In this document: positions 6,331 through 55,739 of the stretch, piece by piece
Layout: each line of letters starts with the position of its first letter
Position numbering within the stretch: position 1 is the stretch's first letter
NCBI GenBank assembly: GCA_965235115.1
Contig: OZ249436.1
Span: 2,110,001-2,174,000 of the forward strand
Length of the DNA: 64,000 nucleotides
Direction of reading: 5' to 3'
DNA from: Laetmonice hystrix
Lineage: Eukaryota
The notes under the pieces: generated by a model
What the model saw: only the letters and a program-made list of their open reading frames with translations
Database searches by the model: none
What the model was told of the DNA's origin: nothing
Program-made: the position numbers and the translations under genes

Positions 6331-6953
6331 AGCTACCGTCGCCGTACATATTTTATGTAGACTGCCTGGTGCTGGAGGGCAGTGACCGTGGATGGCTGTT
6401 GTTGGTCTGGCTGTCCGCCCGCCCAGCCAGGAGGTGGTGAGACAGGGGAATGAAGTCTACAAGTAAACGAGATCGTGAACCATTTTCTCCGATAATTCTC
6501 CCGGACACTATCAGTAATAGAGAGGTTTGGCCACACGTTTTACGTTTGTACGTGAGGAAAGGTCACGACCTGACCACCCGTACAGATTCCGTCAGACAGT
6601 TGTTTTGATATGAGTCCCTTTGACGCTCTAGGTACACAGGTACATTGGTACAGCTTAGTTAGAACAGAGCTGGTCAGCAGGCAAAATGTGCTCAGTTTGA
6701 TTCCATTTATCACATATATCCAACATATCCAACCAATGTTTATATATCGGGTGTCCCAGAAAAAGTGAACCGCTTTTTGACAAGTATTTTCTCAGTGATA
6801 GATAAACCGAATTCATTGAAAATTTGCACACAGTAACCTTAGGGTATAATCAACAAGTCTGCAAAATATCTAAAAGATCTGACATAACTTATGCGAGTAT
6901 TGTCAAATTCAAAACAGCATGTCAAAAAATCCAATATCAAAGGAAAACCCTTA

Positions 6954-9900
6954 TTATCCCATCCCCTATCCAGGGGATGGGATCTAGAAATTGTCTGGTT
7001 TCGGTTTCTGTATTATTATTATTATTTGCGGAGTAGTAGTAGTAAACAAGGGGTCGTATATCTCGGCCGTTTTTCAAGATATCTAAGTCAAACTTGGTGG
7101 ACATGTTGATAGTCACCAACTTTGATCTGACAATGAGTCATGACGTCACACGACCTAACGTCATGACGTCATGACGTCATTCGTGTTCTGAATATTAGGA
7201 CGGTTTTCAAGGTCAGTATTGATACTTTTGAGGAACTGATGACACAGTCTAAATTGGGCAAGGACCTAATTGATTTTTTTCAAAAATTTTGACCTTTGAC
7301 CTTTGACATGTCTAAAAGCTAGGTCGAAGGTCAGAAAATGCTTAAATCCTATCTTCTTCCTCAATTTTCATTAAAATTTCATGACATTGCACAGGGATGG
7401 TCTCTAACGAGAGCTTCAAAGGAATCCGCTTTGCTACAATTGATTTGACCTATATTCGTTGAGTCACGTGACCTGAAAGACTTGAACAGAGGTCAATATA
7501 GATATATATGGCTATAACTAAGAAACGGTGCCAGATAGGGCCATAGTTACTATTGAACACGAATAGGAAGTCATGTATGCTCTTTCAATTGACGCCAAGT
7601 TTGATGACGTAGCATGAAGTATGACGTCATAATGACGTCATCTATATTTTCTAAGGCCTAGATCTCCTCAACGGTGGGAGATAAAGCCATGGTTACTATT
7701 GAACACGAATAGGAAGTCGTGCATGCTCTTTCAAATGACACCAAGTTTGATGACGTAGCGTGACGTATAACGTCATAATGAAGTCATCAATATTTTCTAA
7801 GGCCTAGAACTCTTCAACGGTGGGAGATAAAGCCATGGTTACTATTGAACACGAATAGGAAGTCATATATGTTCTTTCAATTGACACCAACATTTATTAG
7901 ATAGCGTGACGTATGACGTCATTATGACGTCATCAATATTTCCTAAGGCCTAGAACTCCTCAACGGTGTGAGATAAAGCCATGGTTACTATTGAACACAA
8001 ATAGGAAGTCATATATGTTCTTTCAATTGACACCAAGTTTGATGACGTAGCGTGACGTATGACGTCATAATGACTTCATCAATATTTCCTAAGGCCTAGA
8101 ACTCCTCAACGGTGGGAGATAAAGCCATGGTTACTATTGAACACGAATAGGAATTCGTGCATGCTCTTTCAATTGACACCAAGTTTGATGACGTAGCGTG
8201 AGGTATGACGTGATAATGACGTCATCAATATTTTCTAAGGCCTAGAACTCCTCAACGGTGGGAGATAAAGCCATGGTTACTGTTGAACATGAATAGGAAG
8301 TCGTGCATGCTCTTTCAATTGACGCCAAGTTTGATGACGTAGGATGACGTATGACGTAATGACGTCATCAATATTTTCTAAGGCCTGTAACTCCTAAACG
8401 GTGGGAGATAAAGCCTTGGTTACTATCGAACATGAATAGGAAGTCATACATGCTCTTTCAATTGACACCAACATTTATTAGGTAGCGTGACGTATGACGT
8501 TATAATGACGTCATTGGTATCTTCTATGGCCTATAACTCGAAACGGTGCAGCATAGGACCATAGTTACTATTGAACACGAATAGGAAGTCATATGTGCTC
8601 TTTCAATTGAGACCAAGTTTGATGACGTAGCGTGACGTATGACGTCATAATGACGTCATCAATATTTTCTAAGGCCTATAACTTGTAAGTGGTGGGAGAT
8701 AAAGCCATGGTTACTACTGAACATGACTAGGAAGTCATAGATCCTCTTTTAAATGACATCAAGATTCCTGACGTAGCATGACGTATGTCATAATGATGTC
8801 ATCAATATTTTCTAAGGTTTATGTCTCCTAAACGGTGGGAGATAAAGCCATGGTTACTATTGAAAATGCATAGAAAGTCATGCTCTTTCAAATGACACCA
8901 ACATTTATTAGGTAGCGTGACATATGACGTCATTATGACGTCATTGGTATCTTCTATGGCCTATAACTCATAAACGGTGCCATATAGGCCCATAGTTACT
9001 ATTGAACACGAATAGGAAGTCATACATGCTCTTTCAATTGACACCAACATTTATTAGGTAGCGTGACGTATGACGTCATTATGACGTCATTGGTATCTTC
9101 TATGGCCTATAACTCATAAACGGCGCCATATAGGCCCATAGTTACTATTGAACACGAATAGGAAGTCATATATGCTCTTTCCATTGTGGCCAGTTTGATG
9201 ACATAGCGTGAAGTATGACGTCATAATGATGTCATCAATATGTTCTAAGGCCTCTAACTCGGAAATGGAGGGCGATAAAGCCATGGTTACTACTGAACAT
9301 GAATAGAAAGTCATAGATCCTCTTTTAAATGACATCACGATTCATGACGTAGCATGACGTGTAATGACGTCATCAATATATTCTAAGGCTTATGACTCCT
9401 AAACGGTGGGCGATAAAGCCATGGTTACTATCGAACATGAATAGGAAGTCATATGCTCTTTGAATTGACACCAACATTTATTAGGTAGCGTGACGTATGA
9501 CGTTATAATGATGTCTTTGGTATCTTCTATGGCCTATAACTCGAGAACGGTGCAAGATATGCCCATATTTACTACTGAAGACGAATAGGAAGTCATATAT
9601 GCTCTTTCAATTGACACCAAGATTAATGATGTAGCATCACATATGACGTCATAATGACATCATCAATATTTTCTAAGGAATATAACTCCTAAACGGTGGC
9701 AGATAAAGCCATGATTACTATTGAACATGAATAGGAAGTCATATGCTCTTTGAATTGACACCAACATTTATTAGGTAGCGTGACGTATGACGTCGTAATT
9801 ACGTCATTGCCATCTTCTAAGGATTTTCAGAGGCCTGTAACTACCAAACGGTGCTAGATAGCCCCATAGTTACTATTGAACATGAATAGTAATAGTCATA

Positions 9901-10046
9901 GATCATAATGACGAAATTTGCATCTTCTAAGGCTGATCATCACGGGTGCAAGATAGCACCATACCTAGTTATCCCTACTCAGAACATGTTGGACGGGACA
10001 CCCCGGGGATGGGATCCATTGTGGTATCGCCACAACGAATCTAGTT
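6954..10046 (+). mobile_element. non-autonomous Helentron (HINE/DINE-1/pearl-like) carrying a satellite array
   Basis: 5' subTIR atcccatcccc (6956-6966) with adjacent inverted copy (6973-6983). (TAT)n and (AGT)n microsatellites, internal array, 3' subTIR ggggatgggat (10005-10015), hairpin ttgtgg-tatcg-ccacaa, end ctag-tt. Inserted in a TT site of the host TIR. Confidence 0.8.
7510..9900. repeat. ~146-bp satellite, ~16 copies, inside the Helentron-like element; rich in TGACGTCA/TGACGTA
   Basis: gaataggaagtc recurs at 7561, 7707, 7853 and onward (period 146). Confidence 0.92.
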
Positions 10047-10251
10047 TCAGTTTATGCTCAATGTGGCCTCCATCTTCCTTCACGACTAAATGAAGCCGTT
10101 CCTTCCAAACAGGAATGCTTTTACGTATTTCTTCCACCGATATCTTCTCCTATGACATAATTATCCTGTCCTTTAACGCTGCCGGGGTCAATTTGTCTCT
10201 CAGTGCCCGGTAAACTTTCTCCTTCAGACAGTTCCATATAGCATAATCCAT
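10045..10251 (-). pseudogene. C-terminal fragment of a Tc1/mariner (maT/DD37D-like) transposase
   Basis: Manual translation gives MDYAIWNCLKEKVYRALRDKLTPAALKDRIIMS*EKISVEEIRKSIPVWKERLHLVVKEDGGHIEHKLK. It has the DYxIWxxLKxKVY and GGHIE motifs and one in-frame stop where W is expected. Confidence 0.85.
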
Positions 10252-10919
10252 GAACATGATGGTGATGGTCAGATTGCACAGTTTTGATATCGAATTTTTT
10301 TACATGTTGTTTTGAATTTGACAATATTCGCATAATTTCCGTCCGATCTTTTAGATATTTTGCAGACTTGTTGATGCTTCCCTAAAGTTATTGTGTGAAA
10401 AATTTAAATGAAATCGGTTTATCTGTTTGCAAGAAACGGCTTCCTTTAATCGTGAAGGAAGATGGAGGCCACATTGAGCATAAACTGAAATAAGGGTTTT
10501 CCTTTGATATTGGATTTTTTAACATGCTGTTTTGAATTTGACAATACTCGCATAAGTTCTGTCAGATCTTTTAGATATTTTGCAGACTTGTTGATGATAC
10601 CCTAAGGTTACTGTGTGAAAATTTTCAATGAATTCGGTTGATCTATCACTGAGAAAATACTTGTCAAAAAGCGGTTCACTTTTTCTGGGACACCCGATAT
10701 AACAAACACCTGAACTCAGCGTATGTTTTGATGGTACAACGTCTTAAGGTTACTCTACATTTTGATGTTATATTTTTAAATAATATTTTTGGTACACGTT
10801 TCCATGTACTGGTAAACTCGCCTCCACACGTCCCATGCATGTGGTCTGTACGGGTACGTTTACAGATGAGTGCACATTTCGGTCAGTTATATCACCCGTC
10901 AGTCTACCCGTACCCGTTC

Positions 10920-11860: not shown

Positions 11861-12271
11861 GAGAGACTTCCCCAAAGATTGAACCCTGCGTGTAGTGGGG
11901 TGCGATGGTGGGTGGGATAACGCTTGTACCGATTTGTTTGAACGATGTCAGTATTGATAGACAGAGTGATAAGTGGTGTTGGCAGTAATAGAATAGGTTG
12001 TGTGTTGAGTATGGTTGTGGTGGTAATAATCAGTGAGACTCGGGAGGCGGTATGTCTACGATAGGTTGAGGTGCTGTCGGAGGGTTCTGACGACAGCTAG
12101 AGACGGCCACCGTATGCCCAGCCAAGGTGGTACGGTTTACAGAATGAGTCGACGATCTACATAATTCATACACTCACATCCTAGAGCTAGGTTTTCCGGG
12201 ATGTGCCATCGCTGTCAAACGCGGTTTGTGAACGGCAAACTGTCCACTGTCCCGTCCTCCGTCATTCGTCG

Positions 12272-12541
12272 GGGTGGCCTCGGGTGGCCGAGTGGTCTAA
12301 GGTGTCGGCTCCATCATGACACCTAGGACCATCGCCTCACACCGCTGCGACCCGGGTTCGATTCCCGGCCTGGGCTGCATGTGTGAAAGGTTTGTCAGTC
12401 AGTTCCTTCCCGAAGGTCGGTGGTTTCCTCCGGGTACTCCGGTTTCCTCCACCAAGAAAAACTGACTTTCATGTCATCTTCACCGCCGTGATATGACCCT
12501 GGCTGTTGCAAGGCGTAAAACCCCAAATACCCACCCACCCA
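12272..12541 (+). mobile_element. full-length tRNA-derived SINE with V-SINE-like core
   Basis: A box tggccgagtgg, B box ggttcgattcc, core ggtttcctccgggtactccggtttcctcc, (ccca)n tail. 13-bp TSD ccgtcattcgtcg at 12259-12271 and 12542-12554. Confidence 0.9.
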
Positions 12542-24029: not shown

Positions 24030-24405
24030 AAGGCTGTTTGTGTTTGCAATGAAATGATGTTCAGCTGAGTTTTATAACATGGTATATTTGTGTTTCCAAT
24101 GAGAAGATGCTAGGCTGATTTAAAGTACGGAATATTTGTGTTTCCAATGATATGATGTTGAGCTGATTTTAAAGTACGGAATGGTTGTGTTTTCAATGAT
24201 ATGATGTTGAGCTGATTTTAAAGTACGGAATGTTTGTGTTTCCAATGAGGCGATGCTGAACTGATTTAAAGTACGGAATGTTTGTGTTTCCAATGAGAGG
24301 ATGCTGAGCTGATTTTTAAAGCACGTAATGTCTGTGTTTGCAGTGAGACGATGTTGGGCTGATGTTTAAAGGACCTTATGTCTATGTTTGCAGTGAGACG
24401 ATGCG
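24030..24405. repeat. degenerate ~52-bp repeat ending in the unc-13 acceptor at 24393
   Basis: Units tgtttgtgtttccaatga..gatg.tgagctgattttaaagtacggaa; the last two read tgtttgcagtgagacgatg. Confidence 0.85.
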
Positions 24406-24511
24406 GCTGGACATGGGGCTGATCATCGAGCTGTGGAATAAAGGCATGTTGTGGGACAAGTTGATCGGCACCCATTGGCTGCCCCTGATGAGTATCAAAC
24501 ACTCCAACCAG
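24394..24511 (+). CDS. unc-13: unc-13/Munc13 coding exon, C2A domain (ETMRLDMGLIIELWNKGMLWDKLIGTHWLPLMSIKHSNQ)
   Basis: Acceptor tgtttgcag| and donor |gtaagt; 118 bp, phase 2 to 0. The peptide matches the Munc13 C2A pattern E-x-x-R-L-D-x-G-L-x-x-E-x-W-N-K-G-x-x-W-D, recognised from memory. Confidence 0.95.
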
Positions 24512-25349
24512 GTAAGTTCTCATCAACCTTCTCTCCGAGGGGGTGGGGGGTGGGAGGGTAGGGTGACATATTGGGGGGGGGGAAGAGTACTTCATTTGTG
24601 GGAAGGTCACCCAGGGGAGTTCTCATCACCCTTCTCTCCGAGGGGGGGGGGGGGAGCAAGGTGACATGTTGGGGAGGGGAATACTTCATTTGTGGGAAGG
24701 TGAGCCCGGGAAGTTCTCATCACCACACATTTGAAAAAAAAGACAAAAATTAACGCATAGACAGTTGTGATGGTAAAGGCGTTCTACTGCACTGTTTGTC
24801 CCGCCCCCCTATTATATAGGGAAACTTCTCAAAAAGTTACCCTGCCGTGAACAGTGCAAATCCGTTGAGATGTCGGATAAGGTGTCGGATTAGAACTTGT
24901 CCAAAGTCGTTAACACTCGCCAGTTAATGGATAGAAACGTTGAAAACGTGCACCATTTTAAAAAGTCAATTGACCGAATTGCCGCTGCAGGAGCCCCGTC
25001 CCGTCCCGCCCCGCCCCGCCCCGCCCCGCCCCGCCCCGCCCCGCCCCGCCCCGTCCCGCCCCGCCCCGTCCCGCCCGGACCCCCTCCCCAACCCGCCAAG
25101 TTTTGCTAAGAAAGTTTCAGTTTGTTTCCTGATCACGCCCCAGTGTATTGTATGAGGACTCAGAAGGCCTGATAGAAACGGTAAAATAGTTGTAGTGTGC
25201 TGTCAGTGGTGGGTGCCAAGTCTGGCACCGTTTATCGCTCCATGGCGGCCGGCCCGCCATTGATTGCCTCTATCCTCTTGACGTCAGTGGACAAACCGTC
25301 GTCTCGTCTCCTAGGTTACCAACCCCTACCGTAACATGCCACCAACCTG

Positions 25350-32584: not shown

Positions 32585-33445
32585 AGTATTTCAACCTTTG
32601 TTTGCGTTGTCACGGGAAGGGGGACGGGAAGATGTTGATATTTCAACCTTTGTTTGCGTTGTCACCGGAAGGGGTCTGGAAGATATATGTTGATATTTCA
32701 ACCTTTGTTTGCGTTGTCACCGGAAGGGGTCTGGAAGATATATGTTGATATTTCAACCTTTGTTTGCGTTGTCACAGGAAGGGGTCTGGAAGATATATGT
32801 TGATATTTCAACCTTTGTTTGCGTTGTCACCGGAAGGGGTCTGGAAGATATATGTTGATATTTCAACCTTTGTTTGCGTTGTCACCGGAAGGGGTCTGGA
32901 AGATATATGTTGATATTTCAACCTTTGTTTGCGTTGTCACAGGAAGGGGTCTGGAAGATTATGTTGATATTTCAACCTTTGTTTGCGTTGTCACCGGAAG
33001 GGGTCTGGAAGATTATGTTGATATTTCAACCTTTGTTTGCGTTGTCACCGGAAGGGGTCTGGAGGATTATGTTGATATTTCAACCTTTGTTTGCGTTGTC
33101 ACAGGAAGGGGACGGGAAGATATATGTTGATATTTCAACCTTTGTTTGCGTTGTCCCCGGAAGGGGTCTGGAAGATTATGTTGACATTTCAACCTTTGTT
33201 TGCGTTGTCACCGGAAGGTAGCTGCAGATATATGTTGATATTTCAACCTTTGTTTGCGTTGTCACCGGAAGGTGGCTGCAGATATATGTTGATATTTCAA
33301 CCTTTGTTTGCGTTGTTCCAGGAAGGGGTCTGGAAGATATATGTTGATATTTCAACCTTTGTTTGCGTTGTCACCGGAAGGTGGCTGCAGATATATGTTG
33401 ATATTTCAACCTTTGTTTGCGTTGTCACAGGAAGGGGACGGGAAA
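32585..33445. repeat. ~55-bp minisatellite, 16 copies, whose last unit contains the unc-13 acceptor at 33430
   Basis: Unit tatatgttgatatttcaacctttgtttgcgttgtcac(c/a)ggaaggggtctggaaga. Confidence 0.97.
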
Positions 33446-33554
33446 TGGCTGTCGCTGGACTCGGAACTAATCATGCGGAACGGCCAAGTGATTGGGACTC
33501 AGACCCCGACCGGACACAGCGTGCTCATCGACGCCCGCTTCGAACTCCCATACG
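33431..33554 (+). CDS. unc-13: unc-13 coding exon, end of C2A ([41 protein letters not shown])
   Basis: Acceptor gttgtcacag| and donor |gtgagt; 124 bp, phase 0 to 1. Resembles Munc13 EGPGEW..L..E......GT..PT.H..L.D.RFELP. Confidence 0.95.
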
Positions 33555-35082
33555 GTGAGTCCACCCCACTCCTTCCACCTACCCCACCCCGCTCACGTTA
33601 GGGAGAACAGGGCAGGCTAGGATTTACATTCACTGTATTCTGGTCGTATTGGCTGGAACTGAAAGCCTGTTTAAATGTTATGGTAAAGAAAATTATCAAA
33701 AATTGACAATTAGTTTTAATTTTTTTTTAGAATTTACTTGTTTTGAGTGTGGTATAGGCCAACTAGGATAAGGAATTTATTATGTGAAAGCGCTAACAAA
33801 TACAAAACAAAAATAAATAAAAGTTTTTGTTGATCACGTGTCTAAAACAGTGGGCGTGAGCCGGAAAATATTAATCTCTCGTGATTAAGGACTTTAAAAA
33901 ACAGAAGCTCAAACAAAAAGTCTTCATGCACTTTTCATGTGTGCCAATCGTAGGTGAAACAGTTCCAGGAAGTGCAGGTAGGTGGCGCTCCGACCAAGCT
34001 ATGCGGTCATTGGTGGGCAGGGTCCACGTGACTCGTTCAGTAGGCGGTAGACGGGCAGGCAGAGCGGCATGGCGCTTGGCGTGTGTTTGGTGTGTGCTAG
34101 AACCTAGTGGTTACAGTTCCATCCAGGTGACCTGAGTCTCCATCATCGTGACCTTGAGCTGACGTCCACATATCTCCACACCTAATACGTCCTGGGTGAA
34201 GGTCATAATGGACAGATTAATCAGGAGGCAATTTATAACCATTCCACAGGAAGGATAGAATGTCGGTCCTGTATCGCACATAATTTACTCGTTTGTAAAG
34301 ATAGGAGTGTCTTCATGATTAAAAAAATCACCATAAACCGGTAATATCACTGTGTACAATGTTCCCGCTGTGGGCCAGGCCCGCTACTCGTACTACATAT
34401 AGGACATTCTGAAGTAGTCCATGCACCTAATGTTCACAGAGCTCGCTTTGGGTTGCTACATGGCTACATGAATACAAACTAACCTTATTCGAGCTTATAT
34501 TTTAATAGAAAGCTGTTGCTATGTCACCGAACTAACCGGGTCTTTGTATATAAATGCATGTATGGACGTAGGTCTTGGTAAAAGAACCCCCAACATTCCT
34601 TGAACAGTCCTAGAGACCCTTGGGTCTGCCTTACTAAGGTCTGGTTATTAACGATATCGTTAATGGGATCGTTATTAACCAGAGACTTTCCTATTGAAGT
34701 TAACGATATCGTTAGTTACCGGAGCTCAGTAAGACATGCCCCTGGCAGCACAACAAGAGGAAGCTTTAGCATAGACTCTAGTTTGTCTAGATAGCTGCTG
34801 CACTTTACAAAGTCAGGCCTACGTTAACAAGCCTGATGGTTTGATTGCTGCATTATGTGAACTGTACGGGTTTTTTTCTCAGACAGAAGGCGTGTGATGG
34901 CTTTTTGAAAAGAGCATATTTGTCATTTTTTGTTAAACAGCTCTTTTAGTTGAATATGTTGAGTATATCGAACGGTATGCTCAAAGTCAAATACAAATCT
35001 CATTTACTGCCATATTAACAGAGCGACTCCCATCGATCGGGAATGGTTAGTCTAACTGTGAGGCAGTTATTTCCAATGCCCA

Positions 35083-38037: not shown

Positions 38038-38108
38038 ATCTGCCGGAGTCGGAAGCAGCGGAACTACAAAATAAACTCGAGGTACTAAACAACATCATGG
38101 ACCAAGAG
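38038..38108 (+). CDS. unc-13: unc-13 coding exon (DLPESEAAELQNKLEVLNNIMDQE)
   Basis: Acceptor ttcctctgcatag| and donor |gtgaga; 71 bp, phase 1 to 0. Continues the frame of the previous exon and resembles the post-C2A helix DIPEEEA...KLE.LN...DQ. Confidence 0.9.
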
Positions 38109-38674: not shown

Positions 38675-38720
38675 CCAATAATAACGATGAAGGACCAAAG
38701 ACGAGGTACCTACTCACAAT
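38675..38720 (+). CDS. unc-13: unc-13 short coding exon (PIITMKDQRRGTYSQ + first base of S)
   Basis: Acceptor gattttgttgcag| and donor |gtaagt; 46 bp, phase 0 to 1. This is exactly the phase needed to join 38108 to 48549. Confidence 0.8.
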
Positions 38721-41825: not shown

Positions 41826-43377
41826 ACCACATCTTACCCTTACCCTGGCACATCATACCCTTCACCCCTTAACCCTTTCCGGTCCACTTACACCCCTACG
41901 ACTTCCCAAGCAAATACCACCTCGGCTTCTTTCCATTTTTCCTTCTGTCCCTTTCCATCCTGCAACTACCCCTACCCATGCCTCCACCCAACCCCACCCC
42001 GACCGTTCTTCATCCCATCCCGTTTCCCATCCACCGTCTCCACCCCTAACCCTTCCCACCCCACCTTTCCCTTTCCAACCCCACCCCTCCACCCCTAACC
42101 CTTCCCACCCCACCTTTCCCTACGCAATACGCAATACAGACACATGGATTCCTGGCTTAACCCTTCCCATCCCGTCTTAACCTCAGTTTGTGTATGCTAA
42201 CTCCTTAGATCCCCCCCGATCTGTGTTAGAAATCTCACACAGTTTGACCGTTGGATCACTAGAGCTGAATCACCAAGCTTTAGTTTTTTAGAACCAGTGT
42301 CAGTGCATTCATGTAGTCTTGAACTTTTTCTCCCAGTCTTTTACAGCAAAATACGATCGTCATTAGCAAAAGTCGTCTACCGACAAACGTTGCCATTCTC
42401 TAGTTATGATATTTGATAATGTGTCAACACGTAGGGTCAGTTATAAAAAATAAAGAGATGAATATCTGACACCCTGATTCCTTGAACGGTTTTAATCTGA
42501 TCTCCTTTTCGGCAGAGTTAGACTGTGTCTCTCACCGTTTGAACTCCTATCCGGCAGAGTTAGACAGTGTCTCACCGTTTGAACTCCTGTCTGGCAGAGT
42601 TAGACTGTGTCTCCGCGTTTGAACTCCTATCCGGCAGAGTTAGACTGTGTCTCGCCGTTTGAACTCCTATCCGGCAGAGTTTGACAGTGTCTCACCGTTT
42701 GAACTCCTGTCTGGCAGAGTTAGACTGTGTCTCGCCGTTTGAACTCCTATCCGGCAGAGTTAGACTGTGTCTCCGCGTTTGAACTCCTATCCGGCAGAGT
42801 TAGACTGTGTCTCCGCGTTTGAACTCCTATCCGGCAGAGTTAGACTGTGTCTCTCACCGTTTGAACTCCTGTCAGGCAGAGTTAGACTGTGTCTCTCCCC
42901 GTTTGAACTCATGTCCAGCAGAGTTAGACTGTGTCTCCGCGTTTGAACTCCTGTCTGGCAGAGTTGTGTCTCTCACCGTTTGAACTCCTGTCAGGCAGAG
43001 TTAGACTGTGTCTCTCACCGTTTGAACTCCTATCCGGCAGAGTTAGACTGTGTCTCTCACCGTTTGAACTCCTATCCGGCAGAGTTAGACTGTGTCTCTC
43101 CCCGTTTGAACTCATGTCCAGCAGAGTTAGACTGTGTCTCCGCGTTTGAACTCCTATCCGGCAGAGTTAGACTGTGTCTCGCCGTTTGAACTCCTATCCG
43201 GCAGAGTTAGACTGTGTCTCCGCGTTTGAACTCCTATCCGGCAGAGTTAGACTGTGTCTCGCCGTTTGAACTCCTATCCCAGTATCCGGCAGAGTTAGAC
43301 TGTGTCTCGCCGTTTGAACTCCTATCCGGCAGAGTTAGACTGTGTCTCCCCGTTTGAACTCCTATCCGGCAGAGTAA

Positions 43378-44214
43378 AGGCCTAGACACACATGGGCGGC
43401 AAGCGGCAAGCGGCGAGCGTCAAGCGTCATTTTGAAAATGACGCTCTGAATGCTCAGTATCTATATACTAATACCGTAAGGGGGCTGCGTTGTCATCGCT
43501 CTAAAGTTACCGCTTTTCCCTTTCGAAGCATCAACGTGAAAGTACGCCAGGCATATTTATAGTATTCCCCTGTTTGTTTTGATGTGTATTAATCTTTCTT
43601 TCCTTGGCGCTGTGAGGCATTTTTTAACACATGTTTTACTACAACCGCCCGAACTGTCTGCCATTGTTGTTGTTGTTCATCGGCTATGACAACTGACCTT
43701 GGCTGGAGACCTGCGCCCCCTGGTGGCAGTCTGGCCGCACCATCTCTGGTGCGGCGGGAGAGGGCAGCAGCCACTTTTCAACATAATTCATGTCAAGCCT
43801 GTGCCACGGACTCGACCCCCGCACCCGGCCGCCCACTTTGTGAGCCCGTTGATCTGTGCTATAGTCCGAGAGACTCTGACCCTCTCCGAGGGGAAAGTTG
43901 TGTGCAGCTCTCACCATACAGCTTAGCCTCAGTTAGGGGCCGTCCATTAAGATTGTACGCAAGGGACTGGGACAGGGGGTCATTTAATTTTTTTCCATGA
44001 TTTTGTGTGTATGTACTCCATGGTCGACCCCTTTTAGCCCTTTTCGGTCCCGTGCGGCGCACGGGTTCTTGCTAGTGGTTTTCTATTACACCATTCACAT
44101 TATGGGCGGCGCGTCAAAAAACAATGCTTCCATACTGAGCATTCAGAGCGTCATTTTCAAAATGACACTTGCCGTTCGACGCTTGCCGCTTGACGCCCAT
44201 GTGTGTCTAGGCCT
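43378..44214. mobile_element. PIF/Harbinger-like MITE inserted in the ~40-bp minisatellite
   Basis: ~80-bp TIR aggcctagacacacatgggcg...atgctcagtat / atactgagcat...cgcccatgtgtgtctaggcct, flanked by taa and tta. The array resumes after it. Confidence 0.85.
43713..43727. promoter_or_regulatory. CTCF-like motif inside the MITE
   Basis: gcgccccctggtggc equals the canonical bilaterian CTCF core. Similar sites occur at 14431, 31587, 37691, 38747 and 51209. Confidence 0.55.
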
Positions 44215-45149
44215 TTAGACTGTGTCTCTCGCCGATTAAACTCCTATCCGACAGAGTTAGACTGTGTCTCGCCGATTGAACTCCTATCCGGCAGAGTTAG
44301 ACCGTGTCTCTCGCCGATTGAACTCCTATCCGACAGAGTTAGACTGTGTCTCTCGCCGATTGAACTCCTATCCGGCAGAGTTAGACTGTGTCTCGCCGAT
44401 TGAACTCCTGTCTGGCAGAGTTAAACTGTGTCTTTAACCATTAGGTCCCAGAATAAGTTAGTTGTGAGGAATTGGTCTGTCAACACACTAGCTCGTGTAA
44501 AAGTACCTACATCAACTACCAAAGTAGGTTGGGAGTAGTTCCACTGAAGAGATGTGTCATTTATTTGACGTGTTGCTAGGCGAGCAGCGTCTCCTTGACA
44601 CAACTGGCCGTTTGTCACCACTTGAGACTGTCAGCGTTCAATCGCTGTCACGCTTCGGTTACCATGACAATAGTAGTAGTTGTCTGGAGCGCCCGACCTG
44701 CCGATTCGTTGATGGTTTCAGGTTAAGAGAGCATTCTGTGTGGTCTAATCACACGAAAGGAAAACTTGTCTGCCTGCTAATTGAACACAGAGTCGGTACT
44801 GTTGAGGTGGAGAGAAGTGTAGGGCCACATTACCACTAATGGCCACAGCGGGAGTACAAGTAATTGTTCAGTGAGTTATTACAGGTAAGCAAAGCTCCTC
44901 CCGGAATGTCAGGGGACACTCATTGTCATCTGTAATACCTTACAGTCCGCCCTGATCGGTGTCTAGCTCATGTTGGCGGAGCTCCAATTACAGACTGTGT
45001 TCAGCTGACTGAATGATGCTGCTAGCTTCATGGTCATTATGGCATCCTCGTAAACCGTCATTGCATGAGAGCATTTCACATCTAATACCGGAATACAAGT
45101 CATCTAATTGAAAAAGGAAACCGCCGATATCGGCAAGAGAATACTATGT

Positions 45150-48548: not shown

Positions 48549-48948
48549 CAGGGATGTCCGAGGACAGTGACTATACAAGTGACATCAACTATCCGCTACA
48601 ACACCAGCACAACAGCTCAGCCCACCAGTACCCGAGCGAGCACCCGTACCGGAGTCAACGGGAGGACAGCCGGGAGAGCCAGCACACTCCGGGTAGTCAG
48701 GACTACTACAGTACTCGCGAGTACTACCACGACTCGTTCGACAGGAGTGGATCGTTCGACCAGGACTACCACCATCACCCGTATGATGATGTCGATTACT
48801 ACGATCGCGGGTATGATCATCGAGAACAGGATTATTACTCAGGCTACCCGGAGAACTCGTACCAAACTGGGCGCAGTGACACAGACTTTGAACCCTTGTA
48901 CTATAACAGTAGGCCTAACTCTAGACCACAGTCTTTCCTCAAGGATAG
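48549..48948 (+). CDS. unc-13: unc-13 coding exon, acidic Tyr/His-rich linker (SGMSEDSDYTSDINYPLQHQHNSSAHQY...EPLYYNSRPNSRPQSFLKDR)
   Basis: NAGNAG acceptor tttacag|cag and donor AG|gtgagt; phase 1 to 2; open frame. SEDSDYTSD..YP and PLYYNSRP are motifs I recall from invertebrate long UNC-13 isoforms. Confidence 0.88.
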
Positions 48949-53760: not shown

Positions 53761-54231
53761 TCCTCTGGCTGAGCATGGATTCTTGATAGAGAGAGTAAAA
53801 GTTTGCCGGCCGGTTTGTCTGTTAAATCCCTGCTCGGTGAGGCTGACAGCAACCGGCAGCAGACTGAGAGCGGGAATGGATCTTATCTGTCACTGCAAGG
53901 CGTGCTCAGAATACACGCTATGATGATGACCTCTGACAGGGCCTTGATTGGGTTTCCACAGCAACAGTTTGATAGCCAACCTCTTACTCTAACTCCAAAA
54001 TCTGTTTTCTCAGTCGTCTGACAATTATATGACATCATCTGAAAAAAGGGGTCACAATAAGGATGAATGAGGTGGAGAGGACAATGCCCCCACCAAAGTC
54101 TGCCGGACTGACAGACTGGCTGTGTATTCACTGTGTATCTGTGTCTCCTTGGAGAGGACAATGCCCCCACCAATGTCTGCCGGACTGACAAACTGGCTGT
54201 GTATTCCCTGTGTATCTGTGTCTCCTTGTAA

Positions 54232-55537
54232 AGCCCCAGTCCCACCAAAGCCGATTGTACGACGTTCTATGCCGTTCTATCAAGATCTGAGATTTAGTTT
54301 ACGTCGTGATGAATCGTGATGAAATCATGAAAACCCGAAGACCTAGCTACGAATCTATCATGTTCTATCCCGACATCGGCCCGACCTTCCCGACAGCGCA
54401 ACGACTAAAGCAACGTTCACTGCCGACCTATGCAGATTGAGCTTCGACCTCTCAAGATCCCGGCCCGATGTATGGCGACCTATACCAAGATTGACAAACG
54501 ATGTAGCAACGTTCTATGCCGTGCCCCAGCCGAGCTACGACCTGTCCCGATGACATCTGGTCTAGATCAGGGCTAAAGCCCCAGTCCCACCAAAGCCGAA
54601 TTAGCTACGACGTGTCACGATCTGATAAATCGTGTAGAATCGGGAAAGGTCCTAACTCGGTCGTACAGTAGTCTTGATAGATCCCCATAGGTCGGGATAG
54701 GCCACGATTGCACCCCGACAATTTTAAACTGTTCAAAACAATCGGCACTGGTCGGGAAAAAGCTCAAATCGGGGATATACCGTAGGTCAAACGTTGCTCA
54801 GTCGGGAATAGTCGGGGGACAATCGGGATAGTTCGTTGTTCAGTCCTGGTTGATCGTAGGACAATCGCCGGACATTTCCTAGATCTAGCCCTGACGTCAT
54901 CGGGACAGGTCGTCGCTCGGCCGGGGCTCAGACGGCATAGAACGTTGCTACATCGTTGGTCAAACATCGGGTCGGGTTCTTGATAGGACGTAGCTCAATC
55001 TGCATAGGTCGGCAGAGAACGTTTCTCGGTCGGGAAGGTCGGGGGGATGTCGAGATAGAACATGATAGCACGCATCGTGATCGTTGAGAGATCTTTGGAA
55101 AACCGTTGCCCAGTCGCCGTTGAACGTGGCAATTCGTAGCTAGGTCTTCGGATTGTCATTATTTCATCACGATTCATCACGACTTAAAATAAATTTTAGA
55201 TCTTGATAGAACGGCATGGAACGTAGTACAATCGGCTTTGGTTGGAGTGGGGATTAATTTTCTGGCAGTTGTCCTACGATAAACCAGGACTGAACAACGA
55301 ACTATCCCGATTGTTCCCCGACTATATTCCCGACTGAGCAACGTTTGACCTACGATATAGCCCCGATCTGAGCTTTTTCCCGACCAATGCCGATTGTTTT
55401 GAACAGTTCAAAATTGTCGCGACCTATGAGGATCTATCAAGACTACTCTACGACCGAGTTAGGACCTTTCCCGATTCTACACGATTTATCAGATCGTGAC
55501 ACGTCGTAGCTAATTCGGCTTTGGTGGGACTGGGGCT
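54232..55537. mobile_element. PIF/Harbinger-like MITE (outer copy)
   Basis: TIR agccccagtcccaccaaagccga / tcggctttggtgggactggggct, flanked by taa and tta. Confidence 0.85.
54577..55254. mobile_element. same-family MITE nested in inverted orientation (inner copy)
   Basis: taa|agccccagtcccaccaaagccga ... tcggctttggttggagtggggat|taa. Its body is the reverse complement of the two outer halves. Confidence 0.8.
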
Positions 55538-55739
55538 TTAGACGTCCCAAGTGACTGGCCAGGGTCCGACCCTTACGGTAGACGCCATCAGTAGTCGGCC
55601 ATTTACTGAACCACAGGTCCGTGTGGTCACGGACCATGAGCTTGTGATAGACCAGACGGCCAGACTCACTATACAAAGTAATAAAAACCTTCACTGTACA
55701 GCTCTATTGTTGGTGAAAGCCACGCTTGGCCTTGACAAA

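Follow-up and report, generated by a model that had tools for sequence, protein, structure and literature searches.

Why does unc-13 carry fifteen further copies of one of its splice acceptors directly upstream of the real one, and why have most of these copies lost the AG? The array that raises this question lies in the window, by which we mean the whole stretch of 64,000 nucleotides of Laetmonice hystrix DNA that was analysed. TRF gave 92 rows over the window, including a minisatellite at 32587-33444 with a period of 55, 15.8 copies and 93% matches. Unit-by-unit reading resolved this into 16 head-to-tail units of 52-55 nt each, every unit comprising about 41 nt of intron end, with its pyrimidine-rich tract and the acceptor position, followed by the first 14 or so bases of the exon. 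The acceptor position is CAG in units 4, 7, 10 and 14 and in the real unit 16, CCG in 10 units and CGG in unit 1; AG is intact in 4 of the 15 upstream copies and lost in 11. Unit 10 is the real unit letter for letter from -37 to +14. The only branch-point motif is a weak one at -30, common to every unit, and no inverted repeat was found within 32587-33444. The features are as follows.

32587..33444, plus strand: acceptor-spanning minisatellite (a "mirage"), from TRF and unit-by-unit alignment
32776..32777, plus strand: spare AG of unit 4; exon start 32778, +653 nt, exon of 777 nt, stop within the extension
32941..32942, plus strand: spare AG of unit 7; exon start 32943, +488 nt, exon of 612 nt, stop within the extension
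33103..33104, plus strand: spare AG of unit 10; exon start 33105, +326 nt, exon of 450 nt, stop within the extension
33320..33321, plus strand: spare AG of unit 14; exon start 33322, +109 nt, exon of 233 nt, frameshift, stop in the next exon
33429..33430, plus strand: real acceptor AG of unit 16, the sole site joining in frame to C2A sequence

The gene was identified as unc-13 by a match of the exon behind the array to the C2A domain of UNC-13A and by the mapping of oyster unc-13, which places the whole gene over C1:1.98-2.42 Mb of the 627-Mb assembly. It spans about 440 kb, of which about 150 kb precedes the first exon in the window, and its best named matches are from molluscs and Capitella. 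The exons that concern us here are these.

24394..24511, plus strand: preceding unc-13 C2A exon, 118 nt; donor GT at 24512, intron to 33431 of 8919 nt
33431..33554, plus strand: unc-13 coding exon, C-terminal part of C2A, 124 nt; matches UNC-13A C2A (PDB 2cjs, E 3e-10), donor GTGAGT at 33555
38038..38108, plus strand: following unc-13 exon; edges without an array, resembles Capitella P0012

The first-pass annotation, made from the letters of the window, had named the gene, taken 24511 as the upstream donor partner, and listed 16 copies with AG kept in four of the upstream ones, four frameshifting exon starts and a single copy leading into the real exon. All of this was borne out; unit 16 alone continues into the 124-nt exon. 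Two further observations concern the exons of this gene. A probable 46-nt unc-13 exon lies at 38675-38720 of the window, proposed solely from splice signals and the frame needed between 38038-38108 and 48549-48948. Downstream, at C1:2394138-2395270, two similar exons each match oyster unc-13 residues 716-751 (83% and 47% identity), and from their sequence they are likely to be mutually exclusive exons between C1 and C2B.

What would follow from use of a spare site could be read from the unit positions. None of the four offsets (+653, +488, +326 and +109 nt) is divisible by 3, so that each would shift the frame, and all four live spares, if used, would give a premature stop with many junctions downstream. 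That tandem duplication had produced spare 3' splice sites, each predicted to lead to a premature stop, was likewise a claim of the earlier annotation, and it held. We considered the frame of the offsets as evidence of function and rejected it, four out-of-frame offsets being at chance level (p = 0.20). Three units are in frame, all without AG (chance p = 0.36). Unit 15, which adjoins the real site, is dead at its AG and is the only copy whose use would yield a stop-free in-frame insert, of 18 residues. The spare in unit 14 is the most plausible competitor of the real acceptor. Units 12, 13 and 15 (window 33218, 33272 and 33381) share a variant that creates both a GT weakly resembling a donor and an additional CAG whose pyrimidine tract is poor.

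The array could in principle be an artefact of assembly or reads, and no listed contig spans the whole of the stretch compared. Contigs of three public runs, all from one sample, contain head-to-tail joints at 33444>33392; they cover only the last unit and a half of the array and run unbroken from exon into intron. Such joints recur in every one of the three runs, which shows that assembly did not create the array. The array maps to a single genomic place, and its variants are patterned and common to several units, which leaves an artefactual origin of the array or its variants as an explanation to which we give almost no credence. The same-sample contigs also contain spacer and unit variants that are missing from the assembled array. 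Because the array has one genomic place, these extra spacer variants most likely come from the other allele. Across window 33571-35042, over 1.7 kb of intron, the contigs and the assembly differ by 20 listed substitutions and 12 listed indels, with none listed in the exon; on this comparison the second allele appears to be very divergent.

The history of the dead units was reconstructed from a unit table. A tree in which A>C occurs once accommodates the A, C and G states at -2 together with the exon-side variant. By parsimony, we infer that the real type first changed on the exon side, at +8 and +10, and afterwards acquired A>C at -2, with the A>G of unit 1 arising separately. The 11 dead copies therefore need only two mutations, A>C and A>G, spread by amplification, and this account fits best. 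Most copies depart from the real unit at +8 and +10 as well as at -2, so that the AG has not been singled out. The live units are spaced at gaps of 3, 3, 4 and 2 (spacing p about 0.06), and similarity between units peaks at a lag of 3 (mean distance 2.73, compared with 3.3-4.4). The two patterns together suggest that about three units were amplified at a time. The fallback of the first-pass annotation, a mutation that arose early and was then spread by neutral amplification, is the best fit of the proposals put forward there.

The array is not alone in unc-13. Two more splice-site arrays flank the preceding exon.

24035..24403, plus strand: second acceptor mirage, of the preceding exon; about 50-nt unit, 7 upstream copies, 6 with AG>AA; the nearest copy (24344) keeps CAG
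24508..24724, plus strand: donor mirage, of the preceding exon; 94-nt unit, 2 downstream copies, both GT>GG

All three splice-site arrays of the window are thus majority-dead, with the dinucleotide lost in 11 of 15, 6 of 7 and 2 of 2 copies. In the 3' part of unc-13, at C1:2413195-2414237, a fourth array with a 63-nt unit repeats a donor, and there all 16 of the 16 downstream GTs are intact. Repeats of other kinds also occur in the window. At 6743-10701, 213-nt inverted arms (98%) flank a 146-nt satellite, an arrangement that looks like a non-autonomous DNA transposon; nested long inverted repeats at 54231-55541 are foldback or MITE-like, with a further pair at 43370-44222. The segment at 12270-12530 has a tRNA-like head followed by a conserved-looking body, and in this it resembles a tRNA-derived SINE.

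The frequency of junction-spanning arrays in this genome was estimated from 168 donors and 168 acceptors modelled over about 273 kb. The survey took in unc-13 and 11 dynein genes sampled in pieces of 3-14 kb, together with longer stretches from two dynein genes that are subtelomeric (C18 and C13); these two were picked since more arrays were expected there, and the sample is small, non-random and made up of DNA-level models only. Dynein heavy-chain genes were located, homologues were fetched, and introns were modelled by alignment across candidate GT-AG pairs. Five junction calls judged to be array-internal or wrong (C18 29861 and 18850, C13 3781 and 39805, C7 8925) were dropped before counting, as was one donor array that took in about 1 nt of exon. 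At array edges on C18, inspection by eye added two sites, an acceptor with 7 of 13 copies intact and a donor with all 11 intact. No stops occur in the exon runs modelled for the C18 and C13 genes; that of the C7 gene has stops because exons are missing from the model.

Junction-spanning arrays were present on 17 of the 168 acceptors and 14 of the 168 donors, and about 26 of the 130 splice sites in the two subtelomeric dynein genes carry them. Of the 148 upstream AG copies outside the window, 118 are intact (77 being out of frame); 10 of the 15 acceptor arrays there keep every AG, and the copy nearest the real site is intact in 13 of the 15. Donor arrays outside the window retain GT in 152 of 163 copies, with majority loss in 2 of 12. 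In the dynein heavy-chain genes up to 22 intact acceptors precede the real one, and at the level of DNA this shows that so many live upstream acceptors are tolerated elsewhere. In the dynein gene at C13:1.13-1.16 Mb, a 49-nt acceptor unit recurs about 22 kb away in another intron, in about 24 copies, of which 22 have CAG. A 65-nt acceptor array in that gene is matched by a twin lying 18 kb upstream, with blocks of a 407-nt satellite between the two. These displaced mirages suggest that a spare acceptor can pass from one intron to another. Of the 69 arrays in the two subtelomeric dynein genes, 23 span a junction where 9.5 would be expected (p 1e-4); the corresponding figure for unc-13 is 2 of 40, with 3.3 expected. 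We do not claim that arrays are preferentially born on junctions, because the null takes introns at their present, swollen size; were they about 250 nt long, as in interior dynein genes, the expectation would on a rough estimate be near 20.

The first-pass annotation had proposed selection for AG-dead units, with an excess of AG loss across such arrays as its signature. Majority AG loss was found in only 2 of the 15 acceptor arrays outside the window, compared with 9 of 135 other intronic dinucleotides of the same units (Fisher p 0.30). A control drawn from arrays away from exons (89 examined, of which 70 had an AG in the end unit) showed loss of 19 of 214 such AGs. Background loss was thus 7-9%, and acceptor-only comparisons gave p 0.2-0.3; addition of the window's second acceptor array gave 3 of 16 against the control 19 of 214 (p 0.19), and at a 25% loss threshold the counts were 3 of 15 and 28 of 135 (p 0.64). 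A true AG loss rate of at least 50% is rejected (p = 0.004), and the 95% interval of 2-41% allows a modest excess. With acceptors and donors pooled outside the window, loss was 4 of 27 against 15 of 240 (6.2%; p 0.09-0.11). Inclusion of the two other arrays of the window raised this to 6 of 29 against 21 of 258 (8.1%; p 0.03-0.04), a count that is biased because the window arrays had been seen before the test. Strong selection for AG-dead units is therefore rejected. The expected excess failed to appear for acceptors alone and survives as a weak, roughly twofold trend in the pooled counts. Three further candidates were tried and set aside. Acceptors do not lose their dinucleotide more often than donors, as scanning would predict (2 of 15 against 2 of 12); no gradient with the nearest copy dead was seen, that copy being intact also in the window's second acceptor array; and by eye, across 17 arrays, AG loss followed no pattern with exon overlap, acceptor score, or exon or intron length. 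No genome-wide count of AG or GT loss in such arrays was found in the literature searched, in which subscription journals are largely missing.

How, then, should the dead units of unc-13 be understood? One possibility is weak purifying selection: live spares would steal a small share of splicing, alleles with dead units would gain a slight advantage, greater in a dosage-sensitive gene like unc-13, and the array itself would have no function. The majority-dead state of all three window arrays would be expected under such selection, as would the roughly twofold pooled excess and the dead AG of unit 15, the one neighbour of the real site that could add a readable insert. The acceptor comparisons, in contrast, show no significant excess, and none at the 25% threshold; the nearest copy is usually alive; acceptors lose no more than donors; and the fourth unc-13 array keeps every GT. 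The strength of the pooled trend also depends on arrays known beforehand. We regard weak selection as unlikely. A more far-reaching reading is less likely again. It holds that arrays sit on roughly one fifth of the splice sites of subtelomeric genes, probably on thousands genome-wide, with up to 22 identical live acceptors, that the twofold excess of dinucleotide loss may be genuine and most pronounced in neural genes sensitive to dosage, and that the number of live AGs in unc-13 is a heritable splicing-efficiency allele; taken as a whole, this is a speculation that we rate as improbable.

The other reading offered by the first-pass annotation was that the array is a copy-number-tunable source of NMD-targeted unc-13 transcripts. 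As a dial, the count of live AGs would determine what fraction of these transcripts goes to nonsense-mediated decay and thereby tune synaptic release. The premature stops of all live spares, the different units that the other allele appears to carry, and the plausible 233-nt exon from unit 14 would suit such a switch. Out-of-frame offsets, however, are the default, both here and elsewhere in the survey, and most random spares would give stops as well. The same layout occurs on 15 other acceptors, in dynein genes, and as it is common in unrelated genes it is not specific to unc-13. There was no sign of a conserved element in the closest named relatives, P0001-P0005, for which translated upstream frames only were compared, and amphioxus mirages are reported to yield no aberrant mRNA (PMC3087553, PMC3902484). 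We found no evidence for a tunable switch, and dynein heavy-chain genes with up to 22 live acceptors speak against it; we consider it very improbable.

The explanation that we favour, and think probably correct, is that the array is a near-neutral mirage minisatellite whose real site is chosen across the exon. In other genes the spare splice signals have been retained in most arrays of this kind, so that partial AG loss needs no special function. Tandem copying of an intron-exon boundary is a known by-product of repeat instability and is common near chromosome ends in this animal. Minisatellites expand by slippage or unequal exchange, and by such a route a segment of about 55 nt that chanced to straddle the acceptor would have been duplicated in tandem and expanded into the intron to give the observed array; half of the intronic DNA near this chromosome end has expanded in this way. 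On the parsimony tree, one copy would have gained the exon-side change, and a descendant of it the A>C at the AG; amplification would then have copied about three units at a time (in the order dead, dead, live), and the edge unit would have taken A>G separately. If exon definition applies, the spliceosome should pick the last copy, which gives the shortest exon (124 nt from the real site, 233-777 nt from the spares) and would be paired across the exon given the 8.9-kb upstream intron. The last copy would be the one used, because unit 16 alone leads directly into the whole 124-nt exon and its donor. Rare mis-splicing would lead to premature stops, and leaked transcripts with such stops would be decayed. 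Such decay would lower the cost of live spares and is not in itself a function.

Published work on competing sites gives this choice some support. In human data the sites closest across the exon are favoured when introns are long, and the upstream 3' site, which is preferred overall, has this preference only "significantly reduced" where exon definition operates (PMC9225289). Old experiments with duplicated sites reportedly gave opposite results (PMC1557585). As the upstream preference is merely reduced and the experiments conflict, choice of the last copy is not guaranteed, and some leakage may occur.

The feature is real, its kind is already known as the mirage, and the locus is one of many such arrays. 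If the broad pattern described above is true, this genome would offer a natural library for the way in which the spliceosome chooses the last among many identical 3' sites. Tolerance of many perfect spare acceptors directly upstream would favour 3' site choice across the exon over first-AG scanning, a prediction testable with ordinary RNA-seq. The arrays also call for caution in annotation, because gene predictors and protein-to-genome aligners can choose array-internal sites, as happened several times here.

The original report of mirages is said to be that of Canestro et al. 2002. In amphioxus, they are described for Adh3, the globins BflGb6 and BflGb9, troponin C and PGBD5, with units of 10-160 bp of which "many, but not all" keep AG or GT; splicing is reported as normal, haplotypes differ in copy number and edge units diverge (PMC3087553, PMC3902484). 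BflGb6, as described there, resembles the unc-13 array in that the 3' end of an intron and the start of an exon are repeated. The unc-13 array shares the defining traits of a tandem unit of minisatellite size (55 nt), an authentic unit at the end, and a dinucleotide kept in some copies (4 of 15). A comparable case is the 37-bp VNTR of human F7 intron 7, where the end unit spans the real splice site and identical spares are silent (PMC1557585). There it is a donor that is repeated and the first copy that is used, whereas the repeated site of unc-13 is an acceptor, of which the last copy has to be used; 5'-to-3' scanning alone is thus an insufficient explanation at unc-13. The rule for competing 3' sites, by which long flanking introns favour the site closest across the exon, would pick unit 16, but that study concerns natural alternative pairs in human genes and not 5-23 identical copies, and it describes a reduced upstream preference rather than a strict rule (PMC9225289). 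Compared with the amphioxus mirages, the present case comes from a lophotrochozoan, judged from the best named matches to be probably an annelid, involves unc-13, has most upstream copies without AG, and is accompanied by counts of affected junctions and kept sites on a sample at the DNA level.
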